From an uncultured Clostridia bacterium (lineage in GTDB: Bacteria; Bacillota; Clostridia; TANB77; CAG-508), in NCBI GenBank assembly GCA_934130085.1, contig CAKOXK010000002.1, positions 4,613 to 68,612 of the forward strand: 64,000 nucleotides of DNA, read 5' to 3'. The notes beneath the pieces were generated by a model that was not told the DNA's origin, ran no database searches, and saw only the letters and a program-made list of their open reading frames with translations. Positions 3,201-46,674 of this stretch are shown piece by piece. Within the stretch, counting starts at the first letter, position 1, and every line of letters begins with the position of its first letter. Both the position numbers and the translations under genes were made by a program.

Positions 3201-4082
3201 TTAGTAATTGTCTTCTACTAAATCTTTTAGAAATACTCCATAATCATTCTTTTTTAATGTTTCAGCTAAAATTGATATTTGTTTTTTATCAATCCATCCA
3301 TTTTCAAATGCAATTTCTTCTGGTGCACATATTTGCAGTCCTTGTCTTTTTTCTATTGTTTGTACAAAACTTGCTGTTTCTAATAGAGCATCATGTGTTC
3401 CTGTATCAAACCAAGCCATACCTCTTCCTAATTTTTCAACCTTTAATTTGTGATTTTTCATATAAACCTCATTTATTGAAGTTATTTCAAGTTCTCCTCT
3501 TGCTGATGGTTTAATTTCCTTTGCAATTTGAACAACATCATTTGTATAAAAGTATAGTCCTGGAACCGCAAAGTCTGACTTTGGGCTTTCTGGTTTTTCT
3601 TCTATTGAAATAGCATTACCTTCTTTATCCATCTCAACAACTCCATATCTTCTTGGATCTTTTACCCTATAGCCAAATATTGTCGATTCGTCTTCTCTAT
3701 TGCTAGCTCGAATTAAAATATCTTTTAAATTTCCTCCATAGAACATATTGTCCCCTAATATCATGGCAACATTTGAATCTTTTATAAAATCTTCTGCAAT
3801 TATAAAAGCTTCAGCTAGTCCTCTTGGCTTTTCCTGAATTTTATACTCTAAATTAATTCCCCATTTTGAACCATCGCCTAATAGTTCCTTAAACATTTGC
3901 TGATCTCTTGGAGTAGTTATTATCAAAATATCTCTAATCTTCGCTTCCATTAAAACATATAATGGATAATATATCATTGGTTTATCATAAACTGGCATTA
4001 TTTGTTTAGATATAGCAAGTGTTAGTGGGTAAAGTCTTGTTCCTGATCCACCTGCTAATATTATACCTTTTCTATCTTTCAT
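3201..4082 (-). CDS. rfbA: glucose-1-phosphate thymidylyltransferase
   Basis: The [16 protein letters not shown] nucleotidyltransferase signature; 293 aa; AAGGA RBS. Confidence 0.92.
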
Positions 4083-37172: not shown

Positions 37173-39023
37173 TTATTTTAAATGTAAAATAACTCCCGCA
37201 TTTAAATTTTGAATTAGTTCTTCGTTTTTTAAGCCTAATGATTCCTTTACTTCTTTTATAATCGCTTCTCTGTCGTAACCCTCATTGCAAATTAATAAAA
37301 TACCGTTTTCAATATCCTTACCATCGAATACTTTTTTAATATTTTCTTCATTTGCATTTCTAAGTCTCATTATGTATGAATTATCAATTTTAGTAAATAA
37401 GTAAATATCATCTAAAAATCTATTATTATTCTCATTAAAAACATATAGAGCTGGTACATCAGATATTTCTTCTACCCTTTCAGCAACATTATTCATTCTT
37501 TTAAAAGTAAAATCTAATTGCTTGCCTGTAAAAATTGGAGAAATAGTTGTAAACGTAAATATTAAAACTAATGCAATACTTGATACTGTACTAGGATTTA
37601 TAGAATTTCTTTTTTTGTGATTAATATTTGTATGGCTATCACGACTGCAATTCTCTGCTACCTTTTCCAAAACAAAGTTTGTGATATATATAATAAAAAT
37701 CATGGTAACAGAAATTATAGGCATCATGTATCTAAGTTCTTTGTATGGTGTAATTTTAGCAACTAATACAAAATACACGATCATAGGAAATAAAATTAAC
37801 TTTATTAATTTATTTACCTTCACACTAAAGTCAACAGTATCAATATTAGTATTAATATTAGTATTAGTCTTTGTGTTCATGTTTGTATTTATATTAATGT
37901 TATTTTTGTAATTTTTACTTTTCTGTCTAATAATTGCTAATAAGCTTATAATTGAAATTGCAATTTCTATCTTGCCAAATAAATTCTTTCCTAAAATTCC
38001 AAGATAGATTATAATATCTTTTCCCAAGGCTTTAAAATCAATAAAATTGCCTGTTGCTCCTACTCCTCTGTATCCATTAAAAATATGATTTATTGAATAC
38101 GGAAAAATAGCAAGTGATATTCCCGCAGCAACTACAAAAGTAGAAATATATTTTATAAGATTTTTGTATTCCTTATTTTTTATATATTTTATAACGAAAA
38201 TTATGAAAAGCACTCCAATATAAATCAACGTGTAATAATGAGTTAATGAGCTTAAAACCGTAGCTATAAGTACGGTGATTAAATCTTTAAACTCTAGCTC
38301 TTTTTTCTCATACAAGTTCATGTGAATATATGTTGAAATAAGCACAAACAAATTTGCAAGTTCATACATTCTTATATATGCACTCGTATCTAATGCCCCT
38401 AAGCAAAGTCCTGTAAAAAGCAATGTTAAAAGTGCTTTTTTATTATCTTTAAATAGCTTCTTTGCAATTAAAAATATAAAAACACTCGAAAAAGCATAAA
38501 TAATCATATTTAAAATAAGTCCAGACCATTTTGAAAAATTCCCCACAGTAAATAGGGATGCAATTCTAAGTAGCAAGTAAAATAATGGTGGATGAACATC
38601 ATTTTTTTGATTTTCATAAACTGGTTTAAAATTTGAGACTTCATCATTCCCAATTTCGAAATAATCTTTATAATAATCTTTTGAATGCCATGTATCATAA
38701 AAATCAGAATTATTGGTTATTTCTATTTTATTATAATTCATTAAGCCATAAGAATAAGCTTCATCCATGTGAAAATATTCTTTTCTATAGCCAACAAATA
38801 CTCTCACTGCAATTTGCAGTAAAACAATTACAATAAATAAAATTACAGTTAATCTCTTGCTAAAATCTTTTGTAGAAATGCTTTTTATATTTGTTCTATG
38901 TTTTGCATTAGAATCTTGCATGCTAAATTCCTTGTTATTAAAACTTTTTCTATTTTGCCTTCTATTATAAGGTTCTTTTTCTTCCAAAATATTGTTACTA
39001 GATGTTTCTTTGTTCATATACAT
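37173..39023 (-). CDS. GT-C-fold membrane glycosyltransferase-like protein (ArnT/PMT-like), putative
   Basis: 616 aa with more than 10 predicted TM helices and HMDEAYSYG in the first loop; internal NINTN low-complexity segment. Confidence 0.4.
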   Translation of the reverse strand: MYMNKETSSNNILEEKEPYNRRQNRKSFNNKEFSMQDSNAKHRTNIKSISTKDFSKRLTVILFIVIVLLQIAVRVFVGYRKEYFHMDEAYSYGLMNYNKIEITNNSDFYDTWHSKDYYKDYFEIGNDEVSNFKPVYENQKNDVHPPLFYLLLRIASLFTVGNFSKWSGLILNMIIYAFSSVFIFLIAKKLFKDNKKALLTLLFTGLCLGALDTSAYIRMYELANLFVLISTYIHMNLYEKKELEFKDLITVLIATVLSSLTHYYTLIYIGVLFIIFVIKYIKNKEYKNLIKYISTFVVAAGISLAIFPYSINHIFNGYRGVGATGNFIDFKALGKDIIIYLGILGKNLFGKIEIAISIISLLAIIRQKSKNYKNNININTNMNTKTNTNINTNIDTVDFSVKVNKLIKLILFPMIVYFVLVAKITPYKELRYMMPIISVTMIFIIYITNFVLEKVAENCSRDSHTNINHKKRNSINPSTVSSIALVLIFTFTTISPIFTGKQLDFTFKRMNNVAERVEEISDVPALYVFNENNNRFLDDIYLFTKIDNSYIMRLRNANEENIKKVFDGKDIENGILLICNEGYDREAIIKEVKESLGLKNEELIQNLNAGVILHLK

Positions 39024-39045: not shown

Positions 39046-39125
39046 CTTTTATTTATCTGCTTTTTATTTATACGTTTTTTATTTGTCCGTTTCTTATTTG
39101 TATGTTTTTTATTTGTGTTTTTTAG
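39046..39125. repeat. degenerate 14-15-bp tandem repeat (TTTTTATTTGTNCG-like, about 5 units) just upstream of the GT-C gene
   Basis: Visible by direct inspection. Confidence 0.6.
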
Positions 39126-39425: not shown

Positions 39426-41594
39426 CTAACCAGGCTCAGATATCTCATATTTGCTCATCCAGTAACCTGGTAACTCAACACCTGCAAAAGTAAATGCTTC
39501 AGGTACTTTATATATATGGTTTTCGTCTTCATGATTTGTAACATCCTTTGTTATAAAGTTAATGTCATATCCATTAGTACTTTTATCTATTTTATATTCA
39601 TATCTTGGTATCCACACCCAATATGCAATCTTGCCATTTGCTTTAGTTACAATGTTTGCCCATTTTCTTTGAGCATAATCATACCAATTTTGAGGTGCTG
39701 GTTGTGAAATTGGTATATCACTATGTTCTGTTCCATCATCATCCCAGTAAACATAATATGTGTTTTCTTTATCAAGATTATCTAAATTAACTTGTATTTT
39801 CTTTGATGATACGTTCTTTCTTCCTAACGGTATATTATCTTTCATTACACAAACATCATGATCTTTTGTTGAATCTATTCCAGTTATATTGCATGGCAAA
39901 ACGCCTGTAAATTTAAGATCTCCATCAATATATACTCTGTAGTCTTTTCCCTCTTCTTGGTTGTTTACTGAAACCGTTAGATTATTGTTGCAATCATAGC
40001 CTGTTGCGATTTCTTCTGCAGTATCTTTGGTCTCTGATATTTCATATTTGCTTATCCAATAACCTGATAATTCAACTCCCTTAAACGTAAATGCATCTGG
40101 TACTTTGTATATACTATTCTGACTGTTGCTATTAGTGAAATTTTTTGATACAAGTTCTAGACTTAGCCCTTCTTTTTGTGATGGCTCCATTTTATATCTA
40201 TAACGAGGAATCCATACCCAGAAAGTTACCATATTATTGGTCACAGTTACTATATTAGCATATTGTTTTTTACCATAGTTATACCAATTATCTGGAGCAG
40301 GACCTTTATCAATTCTGTTACCAATTTGCATATTTTCACCGTTCTCATCAAATGTTACATAATATGTGGCTTCTGGAGCCAAATTGCTTAAATCAACTAT
40401 CACCTTTTTTGTTGTAACCTGATTTCGTGCTATTATCTTACCATTTTTGGTTACACATATATCATATTTCTTATTTTCCTTTAGTCCGGTAATATCATGT
40501 GGTAAGCTCCCTTTATAATTTTCTATTCCATCTAGATAAACAGTGTAGTCTCCATTCTCCGTGTCATCACAATTTACAGTTATAAAATTAATATCAGTTC
40601 CAAGAGCTAATTGTGGTGAACCATTTTCGCAAACCTCATATTTGCTCATCCAGTAGCCTGCTAATTCCTGATTTGCAAATGTGAATGCTTCTGGTACTTG
40701 ATAATTTGAAGCAAGGCTTTCTGTTGTTCCATCTTCTTTTTTATATTCATTGGTTGTACTTATAAATCTTGCATCTACAGTTTGATCCGACTTAGTTATG
40801 TATGAATACCTTGGTATCCATACCCAATATGCAACCTGATTTCCTGTTACCGTTACTATATTTGCATACTTTTTCTGACTGCTACTATAATCATACCAAT
40901 CTGCTGGAGTATCTACCCTATCAATTCTGCCTGCTATACTTTGATTTCCGTTCTCATCATACGTTACATAGTATGTAGATGTAGGTTCCATATTTGATAA
41001 ATCTGGGGTTTGCATGAATACATCTCCAACTTTTTTGTAAGTTGTGCTTTCTGGAGTTTTATCACCTATATCTGTTTTTCCTCCATCATCTGAATCTTGT
41101 CCTTTGTTATCATCATCCTTACTGTCATCGCCACCATTTTTATCAACAAAATCTTGCCAGCTGTCATAGCTCCACACTGGAATATTTGCTTCAAAACACC
41201 ATTTAACACGTTTTTTATTGTTTGTATAAAAATAATATGTCTTGTTATTTTGAATGATTACTTCCTTTTCATAGTCGCTTTTTATTTCAGGTATAATCTT
41301 TTTTATTTTATCTTGCCCTACTAATCCAACACTTATTGTAAAATCAGGATTTTCAATTTGCTCCCCAGAAACATACATAGTTGCCTCTTCCATATATTTT
41401 TTCATCTGACTTACAAAAGCTGTTTTCTTGGTTCTTTCCAGTAAACCATTTTCACTAAAAACAGTAGCTATTGCAACGCCTGCAATAATTAGTAAAACTA
41501 TAATTGTAACTACAAGTGCTATTAAAGTTATACCATGGTTTTCCAAGCTGTTATTTTTATGTTTTAATTCAGGCTTTAACTTTTGTTTTTGCAT
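39426..41594 (-). CDS. type IV pilin-like (prepilin-type N-terminus) surface protein with three tandem ~200-aa repeat units; start overlaps the 3' end of the DGR RT gene
   Basis: N-terminus ...ENHGITLIALVVTIIVLLIIAGVAIA. The three repeats each end in GYWMSKYE(V/I) and contain WVWIPRY. The repeats are also visible at the DNA level (about 600-bp period). Confidence 0.6.
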   Translation of the reverse strand: MQKQKLKPELKHKNNSLENHGITLIALVVTIIVLLIIAGVAIATVFSENGLLERTKKTAFVSQMKKYMEEATMYVSGEQIENPDFTISVGLVGQDKIKKIIPEIKSDYEKEVIIQNNKTYYFYTNNKKRVKWCFEANIPVWSYDSWQDFVDKNGGDDSKDDDNKGQDSDDGGKTDIGDKTPESTTYKKVGDVFMQTPDLSNMEPTSTYYVTYDENGNQSIAGRIDRVDTPADWYDYSSSQKKYANIVTVTGNQVAYWVWIPRYSYITKSDQTVDARFISTTNEYKKEDGTTESLASNYQVPEAFTFANQELAGYWMSKYEVCENGSPQLALGTDINFITVNCDDTENGDYTVYLDGIENYKGSLPHDITGLKENKKYDICVTKNGKIIARNQVTTKKVIVDLSNLAPEATYYVTFDENGENMQIGNRIDKGPAPDNWYNYGKKQYANIVTVTNNMVTFWVWIPRYRYKMEPSQKEGLSLELVSKNFTNSNSQNSIYKVPDAFTFKGVELSGYWISKYEISETKDTAEEIATGYDCNNNLTVSVNNQEEGKDYRVYIDGDLKFTGVLPCNITGIDSTKDHDVCVMKDNIPLGRKNVSSKKIQVNLDNLDKENTYYVYWDDDGTEHSDIPISQPAPQNWYDYAQRKWANIVTKANGKIAYWVWIPRYEYKIDKSTNGYDINFITKDVTNHEDENHIYKVPEAFTFAGVELPGYWMSKYEISEPG

Positions 41595-42655
41595 TTTCCC
41601 TCCCCGTCTAATGGTTCTTCCTTATTTTCTCTATATATCCATTCACATTTGTCTATTACATTATCTATCAATTTTCTTGAGCTTGCATGAGAAGCATGAC
41701 CTATCCATGCATTTAAGCTTGCACTAACTTTAGTAATATTAAAATCTTTGTTTTTAAATTTTTGATTCCATTTTTTTATTTTTCTATAAATCTTTTTCTT
41801 ATTGCCTTTTAAAATTTTAATATGATTATCTTTTATTTTATATCCACAAAACTTCACACCTTGAGTATTTTTAAAATAATTAGTTTTTTCATTTAGTTCG
41901 AGTTCTAAGTTTTCTTTTAAATAATGTTCTAACTTATTTTTTACATCTTTGCATTCTTCTTTGTTATTCAATAATAATATAAAGTCATCCATGTACCTTA
42001 TATAGTACTTTACTTTTAACTTTTCCTTTACGTAGTGATCAAGCTGATTTAAATAGATATTTGCAAAAAATTGTGAAGTATAATTGCCTATTGGAATGCC
42101 CTTTTTGCTAGTAGTTCTTTGGTAAATGATATTTTTTGTAAATTTTAATAATTTCTTATCTTTTATATATCTTGATAAAATATTGTATAAAATTGATTTA
42201 TCTATGCTGTAGAAAAATTTTCTTATGTCGCATTTTAAAATGTAATAATCTTTATTTTTGTTATACATCTTTTTCATGTAATTTAATAATTGAATTATTG
42301 CTTTATGCACTCCTCTTCCTTCTATGCAAGCATAAGTATCACTTATAAACTTCGGAAGAAAAATTGGCTTTATAAATTCTTCTACATACCATTGATGCAT
42401 TACTCTATCTCTAAATGGTAGTGCCCAAATTATTCTCTCTTTTGGTTCATAGATTTTAAATTTTCTATAGCTTCCAATTACATATCTATCTTTGTAAATA
42501 TCTAATAGCATACTAGTAATGTTAGTTGCTAAGTTCATTTTGAATAAAACTACTTCTTTGTTTTCATGTTTTTCTTTTGAAGCTCTCTTATATGCTTTTA
42601 ACATTTTATCAAATTTAATCTTTTCTTCAAAAATATTACCTATCCTCTTTGGCAA
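41576..42655 (-). CDS. diversity-generating retroelement reverse transcriptase
   Basis: RT motifs including IPIGNYTSQFFANIYLNQLD (the DGR-specific IGxxxSQ) and RYMDDFILL (YMDD). No maturase or endonuclease domains. Adjacent avd and TR/VR. Confidence 0.88.
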   Translation of the reverse strand: MPKRIGNIFEEKIKFDKMLKAYKRASKEKHENKEVVLFKMNLATNITSMLLDIYKDRYVIGSYRKFKIYEPKERIIWALPFRDRVMHQWYVEEFIKPIFLPKFISDTYACIEGRGVHKAIIQLLNYMKKMYNKNKDYYILKCDIRKFFYSIDKSILYNILSRYIKDKKLLKFTKNIIYQRTTSKKGIPIGNYTSQFFANIYLNQLDHYVKEKLKVKYYIRYMDDFILLLNNKEECKDVKNKLEHYLKENLELELNEKTNYFKNTQGVKFCGYKIKDNHIKILKGNKKKIYRKIKKWNQKFKNKDFNITKVSASLNAWIGHASHASSRKLIDNVIDKCEWIYRENKEEPLDGEGKCKNKS

Positions 42656-42999
42656 CTTTTTATCCAGCCTCCTACCATCTTTCCTATTTCTTCAATTTGT
42701 GCATTCCAGTTCATATAGTTTTTATTTGTTATATATTTATATTCGTATGAAAGTCTAACCATTGTTTTTATTACATAGAGTTCTATATCAATTTCATTCA
42801 AGTATCTTACCTTTCTTTCTATGTCTGCTTCTTTCCAAGCCCAGATTACCTTTCTTAAAATATTATATAGTTCGTTTTTTATATCTGTACATAAATCGAA
42901 CCTTTCACTTTTAGGAAACTTTTGTAATAAGTTTTTTGAATAAAATATTAAATTGTTTATTTTTTCATAAATTATTAATCTATTATCTTTTTTAGGCAT
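42640..42999 (-). CDS. avd: accessory variability determinant (Avd, four-helix-bundle protein)
   Basis: 119 aa, basic and helical; resembles the Avd family. A 16-nt overlap with the RT gene implies translational coupling. Confidence 0.7.
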   Translation of the reverse strand: MPKKDNRLIIYEKINNLIFYSKNLLQKFPKSERFDLCTDIKNELYNILRKVIWAWKEADIERKVRYLNEIDIELYVIKTMVRLSYEYKYITNKNYMNWNAQIEEIGKMVGGWIKSCQRG

Positions 43000-43150
43000 T
43001 TAAAATTTTGAAACATCTCGCTTTCGTTTTTATTACTTGTAATTTGTTTCTTTAATGTTTTACCTGTTAAGGAAGGTGCTATACTTCTTTTGTACTTGTA
43101 CTTTTAGTCGAAAGGTTCCATGAAACCTTCCCCTCTTAAATTTATACAAG

Positions 43151-43290
43151 AGTCCCGAGCCAACACACAACACCGCACGAGACGAATTGTTACTGTTACT
43201 ATTACCATTGTTGTTATTATAGCCAAAGAGCGCATTGTTGCTACGTTTGAATACAGGGTTGCCAGAAGTAACAAAATTAGCGTTGGACGA
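43151..43290 (-). other. DGR template repeat (TR), 140 bp, intergenic between the target gene and avd
   Basis: 128/140 identity to 43473-43612. All 12 mismatches are at TR adenines on the coding (minus) strand. The TR is Asn-codon (AAC/AAT) rich in the target frame. Confidence 0.9.
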
Positions 43291-43468
43291 CAGTATAGTA
43301 CCTATGTTTTTAATTTATATTTTTTGAATATTTTATTAATATTATTTTTTGTTTTTTGTTTGTCTATTTTATGTATTTCAATTTATTCTTTATTATTATT
43401 TGTTTTTTTCATTTGTACTTTCGCAATTTATATTTTTTCGTCAATTGTTTTAAGTTCAAAGGGCAGAC

Positions 43469-44131
43469 TTAAAGTCCCGAGCCAACACACAACACCGCAC
43501 GAGACGAATCGCTACTGCTACTAACACCATTGTCGTTATTATAGCCAAAGAGCGCATTGTAGCTACGTTTGAATACAGGGCCGCCAGAAGTAACAAAACC
43601 AGCGCTGGACGAGCTTTTCCAGTTTTTGGTTTCTAGCGTAGCATCTCCTCTTTTTGCTACCTCTCCTGTATATATATTAACATATCTGCTATCTGCATTT
43701 TTCAATTTTGACATATAATCATTTGATGTATTGTAAATACCTGCTACATATTCGTATGTCCCATCTGCCATTTGAAAAATTCCTGTTGCATTGCCTGTTG
43801 TTGAAGCATCTGACCTACCTGATGGAGCACTTCCATAAGGTGATGCTGCAAGCATTGCTGCTGCTCCCCATTCAGTATTCTTAGCCATGTGTACATCAAC
43901 TCCATTATTGCTTGAATCTAAATAAGTGGTGCTATCTAATTGAGCTTTTTTACCTAGTGTTCCTCCTTCAACTTCCATTTGCCTTATTTTTACAAAGAAA
44001 TCATTTGCTGTTGTATTCTTTAAACTAGTTACCCCAGGTCTTGATTGAACCGCCGCATTTACTTTTCCTGTTAACATGAAAGCAGTTAAAATTCCAACAG
44101 TAAAAACTATTGCTGACTTTTTTATTTTCAT
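43469..44131 (-). CDS. DGR target protein: small secreted variable protein (220 aa, SPase-I-type signal peptide, C-terminal variable region)
   Basis: Signal peptide MKIKKSAIVFTVGILTAFMLTGKVNA; the last ~46 codons are the VR, homologous to the TR through the stop codon. Confidence 0.85.
   Translation of the reverse strand: MKIKKSAIVFTVGILTAFMLTGKVNAAVQSRPGVTSLKNTTANDFFVKIRQMEVEGGTLGKKAQLDSTTYLDSSNNGVDVHMAKNTEWGAAAMLAASPYGSAPSGRSDASTTGNATGIFQMADGTYEYVAGIYNTSNDYMSKLKNADSRYVNIYTGEVAKRGDATLETKNWKSSSSAGFVTSGGPVFKRSYNALFGYNNDNGVSSSSDSSRAVLCVGSGL
43473..43612 (-). other. DGR variable repeat (VR) at the 3' end of the target gene
   Basis: See the TR entry. Substitutions are at AAY codon positions 1 and 2 (for example TR AAT to VR GAT, AAC to AGC/GAC/TAC/GGC). 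Confidence 0.9.
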
Positions 44132-44164: not shown

Positions 44165-44200
44165 ATCATTAAGTTATCCTAAAGTAAGTAACTTAATGAT
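44165..44200. promoter_or_regulatory. perfect 36-bp palindrome (12-bp arms ATCATTAAGTTA/TAACTTAATGAT, 12-nt spacer) 34 bp upstream of the DGR target start; the left member of a 30-bp inverted repeat pair
   Basis: Direct inspection; the partner lies at 44356-44385. Confidence 0.7.
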
Positions 44201-44310
44201 AAAAATAAATTAGCTAAAGTTCACCAAAATGCAGTATTCCGTAAGAATTATTCTAATGTAGTAAGACTTATTTTTAATGTTACATGTATATTACGCAAGT
44301 ACGAAAAAAG

Positions 44311-44339
44311 TTGAAATTTTGCCTATTTTATAGTATTTT
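44311..44339 (+). promoter_or_regulatory. candidate sigma-A promoter (TTGAAA-N17-TATTTT) inside the IR-bracketed segment, currently facing the + strand gene at 44604
   Basis: Hexamer match and spacing only. Confidence 0.3.
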
Positions 44340-44355
44340 ATACATATAGTTAGTT

Positions 44356-44385
44356 ATCATTAAGTTACTTACTTTAGGATAACTT
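44356..44385. repeat. right member of the 30-bp perfect inverted repeat (reverse complement of 44171-44200)
   Basis: ATCATTAAGTTACTTACTTTAGGATAACTT equals the reverse complement of AAGTTATCCTAAAGTAAGTAACTTAATGAT. Confidence 0.8.
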
Positions 44386-46408: not shown

Positions 46409-46493
46409 GTTAACAAGAATAAGCCTTAAAGAATATTTCATTTTTCAGTAAATAGAAAAGCTCTATAACTTTCTTCATTATACAAAATATAGA

Positions 46494-46635
46494 AGAAATC
46501 GAAAGATATATTGTTTTTCAATTTTGCGTTAGCGATCAAGCGAAGCGCGAATGTTTCTTTCTTCCTAAAGTTAATCTTGACTAGTGAAGAAAGAAACGAA
46601 CAAAAAATTGAAAAACAATATATCTTTCGATTTCT
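46494..46635. repeat. copy 3 of the ~140-bp palindromic repeat element, between convergent SDR and rplQ genes
   Basis: Perfect 32-bp outer inverted arms AGAAATCGAAAGATATATTGTTTTTCAATTTT / AAAATTGAAAAACAATATATCTTTCGATTTCT; the core is identical to copy 2 except at 2-3 positions. Confidence 0.85.
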
Positions 46636-46674
46636 TTAATTAATTATAATTATTAATAAATTATAATTATACAA

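Follow-up and report, generated by a model that had tools for sequence, protein, structure and literature searches.

A chromosomal diversity-generating retroelement with an invertible segment upstream of its target gene in an uncultured Clostridia bacterium

A 64-kb stretch of DNA from an uncultured Clostridia bacterium (contig CAKOXK010000002.1; hereafter the window, whose positions serve as coordinates throughout) carries an intergenic sequence that is repeated, with changes, at the end of a neighbouring gene, and the question raised by this locus is what generates the differences between the two copies. A first-pass annotation had read them as the template repeat (TR) and variable repeat (VR) of a diversity-generating retroelement (DGR). 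Comparison with metagenome contigs and metagenome-assembled genomes (MAGs; loci labelled L001 etc.), used as consensus contigs, leaves us highly confident that the locus is a complete chromosomal DGR with mutagenic homing from TR to VR, and that an invertible segment lies upstream of its target gene. This invertible switch before a diversified gene, absent from the original finding, is the most interesting aspect of the locus.

A gapless MAFFT alignment of 43151-43290 with 43473-43612 reproduces the 128 identities over 140 positions that had been reported, and all 12 mismatches fall where the intergenic copy has an adenine on the minus (coding) strand, ten of them A-to-G and two A-to-T. The substitutions are limited to codon positions 1 and 2 (six at each, none at position 3) and lie in AAC or AAT (AAY) template codons, 9 of the 13 such codons being hit. 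Some details of the first description needed amendment. The VR codons listed there are present but GTT (from AAT) had been left out, and the count of 20 or more adenine-templated positions becomes 36 adenines in TR, 33 of them at codon positions 1-2. The design was said to create no stop codons, which mostly holds; stop-proofing is incomplete because a single AAA codon, the 15th of TR, can mutate to TAA, TAG or TGA. The repeat boundaries are exact, homology ending at 43150/43472 and 43291/43613, and within the open reading frame (ORF) 44131..43469 the genic copy takes in the first two bases of the final sense codon and no more. No third copy of the repeat was found within the window.

The reverse transcriptase (RT) encoded beside TR is 100% identical as a protein on 7 metagenome contigs, and more loci came from close target alleles. 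Four independent RT-bearing alleles with both repeats were available, with the following shares of TR-to-VR mismatches at adenines:

Window = L001: 12 of 12
L002 = L003 = L004: 18 of 18
L097 = L101 = L102: 13 of 15
L103: 14 of 14

Pooled over the four alleles, 57 of 59 mismatches are at adenines, and the two exceptions are neighbouring bases in the 3' block of the repeats, found in the L097 lineage only. VR is variable at 28 of the 35 adenine positions shared by the TRs versus 9 of the 105 other positions, and none of the 35 shared TR adenines varies. TR itself has 10 variable sites, all outside the 35 all-A positions (sites 23, 37 and 52 are A in at least one TR), a level of variation that matches the background, the non-VR part of the target gene having diverged by 1.4-3.3%. 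Seven of these 10 polymorphisms reappear in the cognate VR. Since non-adenine TR polymorphisms are mirrored in this way, information flows from TR to VR, and has done so after strain divergence. The expectation of the first-pass annotation that VR should vary across strains at adenine-templated sites while TR stays constant is thus borne out as regards the adenines, and non-adenine changes in TR are copied into VR. At the protein level, 13 target alleles (88-100% identical) show 3-9 states at each residue templated by an AAY codon; codons without adenine at positions 1-2 show 1-3 states, and only GTA, with adenine at position 3, reaches 3. No RT relatives more than 60% identical were found among the species representatives of reference genomes, and exact-pattern scans for the conserved 3' block gave no match in genome or metagenome contigs, the first pattern having spanned a polymorphic site.

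Direct repeats 322 bp apart could also come from an ordinary tandem duplication whose copies diverged by point mutation or gene conversion, the neighbouring RT being a coincidence. If 12 mismatches were placed at random, the probability of all falling on adenines would be 1.7e-8 (hypergeometric; 36 adenines in 140 nt). Together with the persistence of the single-base spectrum over four alleles, the constant location of the A in the intergenic copy, and the adjacent Avd, RT and RT-14 RNA, this effectively refutes a tandem duplication, to which we give next to no credence.

Along the minus strand the locus is ordered as invertible segment, target gene with C-terminal VR, spacer, TR, RT-14 RNA, avd, RT and a gene for a 722-aa partner protein, with the following features:

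44354..44385, no strand: distal 32-nt inverted-repeat arm, 100% complementary to 44171-44202
44203..44353, no strand: invertible segment (inverton core), 151 bp, found in both orientations among strains
44171..44202, no strand: proximal 32-nt inverted-repeat arm, 39 nt upstream of the target ATG
43469..44131, minus: DGR target gene, 220 aa, predicted to be secreted and of C-type-lectin fold, with an N-terminal signal-like helix and no Pfam or NCBIfam family
43473..43612, minus: VR, encoding the last 46 target residues
43476..43508, minus: adenine-free GC-rich 3' block of VR, a 33-nt T-free plus-strand run with 61% GC, candidate region like that for initiation of mutagenic homing (IMH)
43430..43472, minus: conserved flank 3' of VR including the stop codon, CTGCCCTTTGA and ACGAAAAAATAT, not present downstream of TR
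43291..43472, minus: VR-TR spacer, 182 nt, AT-rich (18% GC); a site resembling a promoter lies at 43366..43339
43151..43290, minus: TR, with 36 adenines and 13 AAY codons among the 35 codons of its variable part
43009..43152, minus: RT-14 RNA (Rfam RF02921), from the last TR bases to 10 nt before the avd start
42640..42999, minus: avd accessory gene, 119 aa, with PF22296 and NF033474 matches
41576..42655, minus: DGR reverse transcriptase, 359 aa, RVT_1, overlapping avd by 16 nt
39426..41594, minus: partner gene, 722 aa, overlapping the RT stop by 19 nt, with a hydrophobic N-terminal helix and three FN3-like repeats

The avd product matches the Pfam family bAvd (PF22296, E 9.6e-26) and the NCBIfam equivalog DivGenRetAVD (NF033474, 98.8 bits against a cutoff of 80). 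The RT matches RVT_1 (E 2e-20), and its closest solved relative is 8ub7_A (8ub7-series, 328 aa; E 4e-42 over residues 1-329), which we take to be the RT (bRT) of Bordetella phage BPP-1; a literature search for 8UB7 returned no match. The two proteins share the block GIPIG..TSQ.FAN.Y and the YMDD motif, and the IGxxxSQ motif reads IGNYTSQ in the RT studied here. The enzyme also has weak similarity, below the NCBIfam thresholds, to RTs of group II introns, retrons and Drt systems, as would be expected if it belonged to one of these classes (group II intron, retron or Drt/abortive-infection defence) and were unrelated to the repeat pair. The scores lie far under the curated cutoffs, however (group II 110.8 vs. 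300, retron St85 69.4 vs. 235, Drt3a 78.4 vs. 200, Drt2 42.8 vs. 390), the runner-up among solved relatives, a group II intron RT (E 4e-18), trails 8ub7 by 24 orders of magnitude in E-value, and the RT gene overlaps a genuine DGR avd. Assignment to another RT class is thus highly improbable; the closest solved relative, the motifs and the sub-cutoff scores for other classes all point to an RT of the DGR clade adjoining TR. The avd and RT genes beside TR, the target of C-type-lectin fold, the adenine-only mismatches of the window and the pattern among strains all agree with the DGR interpretation proposed at first. The element is a DGR of a familiar type, a well-populated kind of element. Tens of thousands of DGRs have already been catalogued, and the TR/VR pair, being one more among them, is therefore confirmatory rather than surprising.

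Between TR and avd lies a match to the Rfam motif RT-14 that extends over the full covariance model (1-144), its 63.7 bits exceeding the gathering score of 48.1. The motif occupies the same position at all six RT-bearing loci tested (window, L002, L003, L097, L088 and L007), and compensatory changes are seen in 10 of 31 predicted pairs among five loci. RT-1 to RT-19 were described as motifs near RT genes by Weinberg et al. 2017 (PMC5737381), who speculated that some RT motifs represent structured RNA tied to a DGR template. The placement found here supports this speculation for RT-14, which can now be assigned to DGRs as a structured RNA joined to the 3' end of the template. By analogy with the spacer RNA of BPP-1, it is a candidate spacer or priming RNA. 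The present locus gives a concrete role to this orphan Rfam motif, which was earlier known only as RT-associated; a literature search revealed nothing on RT-14 together with DGRs.

The 33 nt that precede the terminal ACT in both TR and VR contain no adenine and have 61% GC, compared with 29.5% GC for the window. The 3' blocks of TR and VR are the two longest T-free plus-strand runs of the whole window, consistent with a region that has to be spared from mutagenesis, and the earlier proposal of an IMH-like region here is plausible from base composition. In the L097 lineage (3842-3981 vs. 3520-3659 in L097, also L101 and L102) the two copies read TG and GA at positions 120-121, inside the adenine-free 3' block, and this is the sole difference resembling an IMH/IMH* asymmetry that we saw. 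The window TR and VR can be told apart by their flanks, with RT-14 lying 3' of TR and a conserved motif 3' of VR. The elements CTGCCCTTTGA and ACGAAAAAATAT 3' of the VR stop codon are conserved in RT-bearing loci (type A), in paralogous loci described below (type B) and in a second species (L088), equivalents of the VR flank being present in L002, L006, L087, L088, L095, L097-L099 and L103. A short AT stem 3' of VR is not kept in L088 but its loop motif CTGCCCTTTGA is. It is possible that this conserved flank serves as a target-recognition or directionality element. In L006 the VR-TR spacer is shorter by about 100 nt. A separate TR promoter is possible, although a scan for promoter and terminator consensus sequences gave no enrichment over shuffled sequences.

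VR, at the 3' end of the target ORF and forming the C-terminus of the protein, is displayed on a predicted C-type-lectin fold; in structural comparison the target comes closest to a DGR variable protein. Neither the target nor its partner belongs to a family in Pfam or NCBIfam. The 722-aa partner has a pilin-like hydrophobic N-terminus (GITLIALVV...) followed by three beta-rich repeats of about 200 aa (WVWIPRY..., PEAFTF..GYW.SKYE) with FN3-like folds. Its homologues number more than 1500, are uncharacterised, and are always adjacent to a gene of the target family. In DGR-less relatives no more than about 40 nt separate the small-protein gene from the next one, which encodes a protein of about 740 aa, and PMT_2 glycosyltransferase genes are nearby; in the window and L088 the cassette TR-RT-14-avd-RT sits between the target and partner genes. 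The DGR cassette appears, from this gene order, to have been inserted between the two. The target defines a family of small secreted proteins with a C-type-lectin fold in gut Firmicutes, not annotated before, whose members are in every case accompanied by a large FN3-repeat membrane protein. Within the partner gene, which contains the repeats, L002 (4304-4617) and L003 (3408-3438) show a difference of about 280 nt that splits the L002 ORF; either the number of repeats is polymorphic or the assembly is at fault.

Six contigs (L087, L095, L096, L098, L099 and L100) carry the paralogous type-B locus, with a target 88-89% identical to that of the window. Its order is a partner paralogue of about 750 aa (59% identical), a switch, a target with VR, a TR-like copy and rpsF-ssb-rpsR (L087 5520-5909; L095 3520-3915). 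The switch has the same arms as in the window and is flipped in every case. The type-B loci have no avd, RT or RT-14. The TR-like copy keeps its adenines except for one A-to-G change in L098, and in L087 it is 6 nt longer than VR. Templating of the type-B VR by its own TR-like copy was considered and rejected, that copy giving 5-16 non-adenine mismatches as against 3-9 for known type-A TRs. The better fit of the type-A TRs suggests templating in trans from an RT-bearing locus, on the assumption that the same genome holds both.

Upstream of the target gene, perfect inverted repeats of 32 nt surround a segment of 151 bp, the element ending 39 nt before the target ATG. The arms are conserved in a lineage diverged by 11% (L006) as well as at the type-B loci. 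The orientation of the window (state 1) is shared by L001, L002, L006 and L103, and L097 and L101 have a full-length inversion (state 2, 94% identity). The junction in L003 is inverted as well, since 11 of 11 bases fit the inverted expectation and only 3 of 11 fit the same-orientation expectation; in L102 the contig ends within the proximal arm. L002 and L003 differ at 1 nt in 3397 (99.97% identical) and have opposite orientations of the segment. In the second species L088, whose target is 73% identical and whose synteny is the same, a different perfect inverted repeat of 29 nt surrounds a 149-bp core at the same place. Searches upstream of the targets of some 20 more distantly related DGR loci, and of DGR-less target homologues, revealed no inverted repeats. 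Because the segment occurs in both orientations in near-identical strains of different metagenomes, it is probably an invertible promoter controlling the variable protein. The most conserved block of the segment, TTGAAATTTTGCCTATTTTATAGTA, faces the gene in the flipped state 2, and the window may for this reason represent the OFF state.

It is possible, although we would put it at somewhat less than even odds, that the target gene, and perhaps the whole operon of TR RNA, avd, RT and partner, is gated by this invertible promoter, and that the type-B locus, which has the same arms but has lost avd, RT and RT-14 and keeps a TR copy in decay, has its VR rewritten in trans from the RT-bearing locus. 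If true, one locus would join ON/OFF phase variation with adenine-directed hypermutation in a two-layer bet-hedging design. The arrangement suggests that DNA inversion can make the expression of a hypervariable ligand-binding protein subject to phase variation as well. The searchable literature yielded no description of a DGR target controlled by an inverton, and its co-mentions of DGRs and invertons are incidental only.

A second inverted-repeat element is present at 46493-46636, between an SDR gene and rplQ, with 38-nt arms (2 mismatches) whose sequence is not that of the arms of the first switch. Its 68-bp core contains a palindrome and a TTGACT hexamer, and has opposite orientations in L097 and the window, 66 of 68 positions being identical only as the reverse complement.

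Several observations weigh against reading the locus as an active DGR under an invertible promoter. In the window the 3' block reads the same in TR and VR and thus shows no IMH/IMH* asymmetry, and the hairpin or cruciform sought 3' of VR, similar to that of BPP-1, has an insignificant folding score (z -0.2). The promoter-like sites in the invertible segment are weak (9/12 consensus), lie in both directions and are no more frequent than in shuffled sequence. No recombinase gene was found between 0.8 and 46 kb of the window, and it may be encoded elsewhere. The evidence for present-day DGR activity is indirect, and turnover of VR is not rapid, since one VR allele recurs in three samples (L002, L003 and L004) and another in L097, L101 and L102.

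The recurrence of identical alleles in unrelated samples would also fit a DGR that is now silent, the TR/VR pattern being the footprint of past mutagenic homing and VR now evolving by ordinary mutation alone. So would the two non-adenine TR/VR differences that persist in the L097-lineage 3' block, and the type-B locus shows that family members can lose avd, RT and RT-14. We nevertheless consider a silent element unlikely. The RT, Avd and RT-14 are intact at the RT-bearing locus, with an RT protein unchanged across the 7 contigs, and pairing in RT-14 has been kept through compensatory changes. Strains that have diverged by so little in the rest of the target gene have VRs differing at 20-24 of 140 positions, nearly all of them adenine-templated. 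Recent non-adenine changes in TR have been copied into VR, and all TR adenines are conserved.

In the mechanism that we propose, following the BPP-1 paradigm, the transcript of TR and RT-14 would be bound by an Avd-RT complex, and the structured RNA 3' of TR would prime cDNA synthesis. The RT would misincorporate opposite template adenines, and the cDNA would replace VR, its homing anchored by the 3' block that is rich in GC and lacks adenine, and possibly by the conserved VR flank as well. The ligand-binding face of a secreted protein of C-type-lectin fold could in this way take up to ~4e19 forms. The invertible segment would act as a promoter switch, flipped by a recombinase, between expression and silence of the variable protein; the downstream DGR genes are perhaps switched too, since we saw no terminator in between.

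The rest of the window consists of housekeeping genes, including a ribosomal protein/rpoA operon, ytxC, ftsK, the RNase J gene, radA, disA and hrcA-grpE-dnaK-dnaJ, along with polysaccharide synthesis genes. Given these neighbours, the DGR is chromosomal and outside any prophage. Downstream of the operon a PMT_2-family glycosyltransferase gene (37173-39023, minus strand) encodes an Asn/Thr/Ile-rich low-complexity insert, NNININTNMNTKTNTNINTNIDT, and between this gene and that of the 722-aa protein 4-5 tandem copies of a 15-nt T-rich unit, TTTTATTTATNNGNT, are present at 39047-39115.

Among known systems, the BPP-1 DGR resembles the one described here in its adenine-specific mutagenesis from TR to VR concentrated in AAY codons, in a VR at the 3' end of the gene for a receptor-binding protein of C-type-lectin fold, in the four-helix-bundle accessory protein Avd, in an RT of the same family (8ub7 being taken as bRT) and in a structured RNA directly 3' of TR. 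It differs in being phage-borne rather than chromosomal among housekeeping genes, in its gene order (mtd-VR/avd/TR/Sp RNA/brt, thus VR-avd-TR-RNA-RT, versus VR-TR-RNA-avd-RT here) and in its target, a tail-fibre tip as opposed to a secreted protein of 220 aa. The window also lacks the IMH/IMH* mismatches and a convincing hairpin after VR. The RNA 3' of TR in BPP-1 is RT-10 (PMC5737381), a different Rfam family from the RT-14 found here. The cellular DGR variable proteins TaqVP of Thermus aquaticus (5vf4) and TvpA of Treponema denticola (2y3c) share 13-16% sequence identity with the target and are longer (277-381 aa vs. 220 aa). Unlike them, the target matches no Pfam FGE-sulfatase or other family and is partnered with a large FN3-repeat protein. 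DGRs in MAGs of gut Clostridia and Bacilli (L007-L048) have the same VR-TR-(avd)-RT layout, RTs that are 45-60% identical, and adenine-only mismatches (e.g. 15/15 in L010, 20/20 in L011 and 21/21 in L013). Their targets are mostly different and larger (485-905 aa), RT-14 is above threshold only in the closest of them (L007), and we detected no inverted repeat ahead of these targets. Invertons such as fimS of E. coli and the cwpV and flagellar switches of Clostridioides difficile are unlike the present segment in that no recombinase gene is adjacent here and the promoter of the segment is only putative. They share with it a short segment between perfect inverted repeats upstream of a gene for a surface or secreted protein, and in the present case the 151-bp segment occurs in both orientations among near-isogenic strains.
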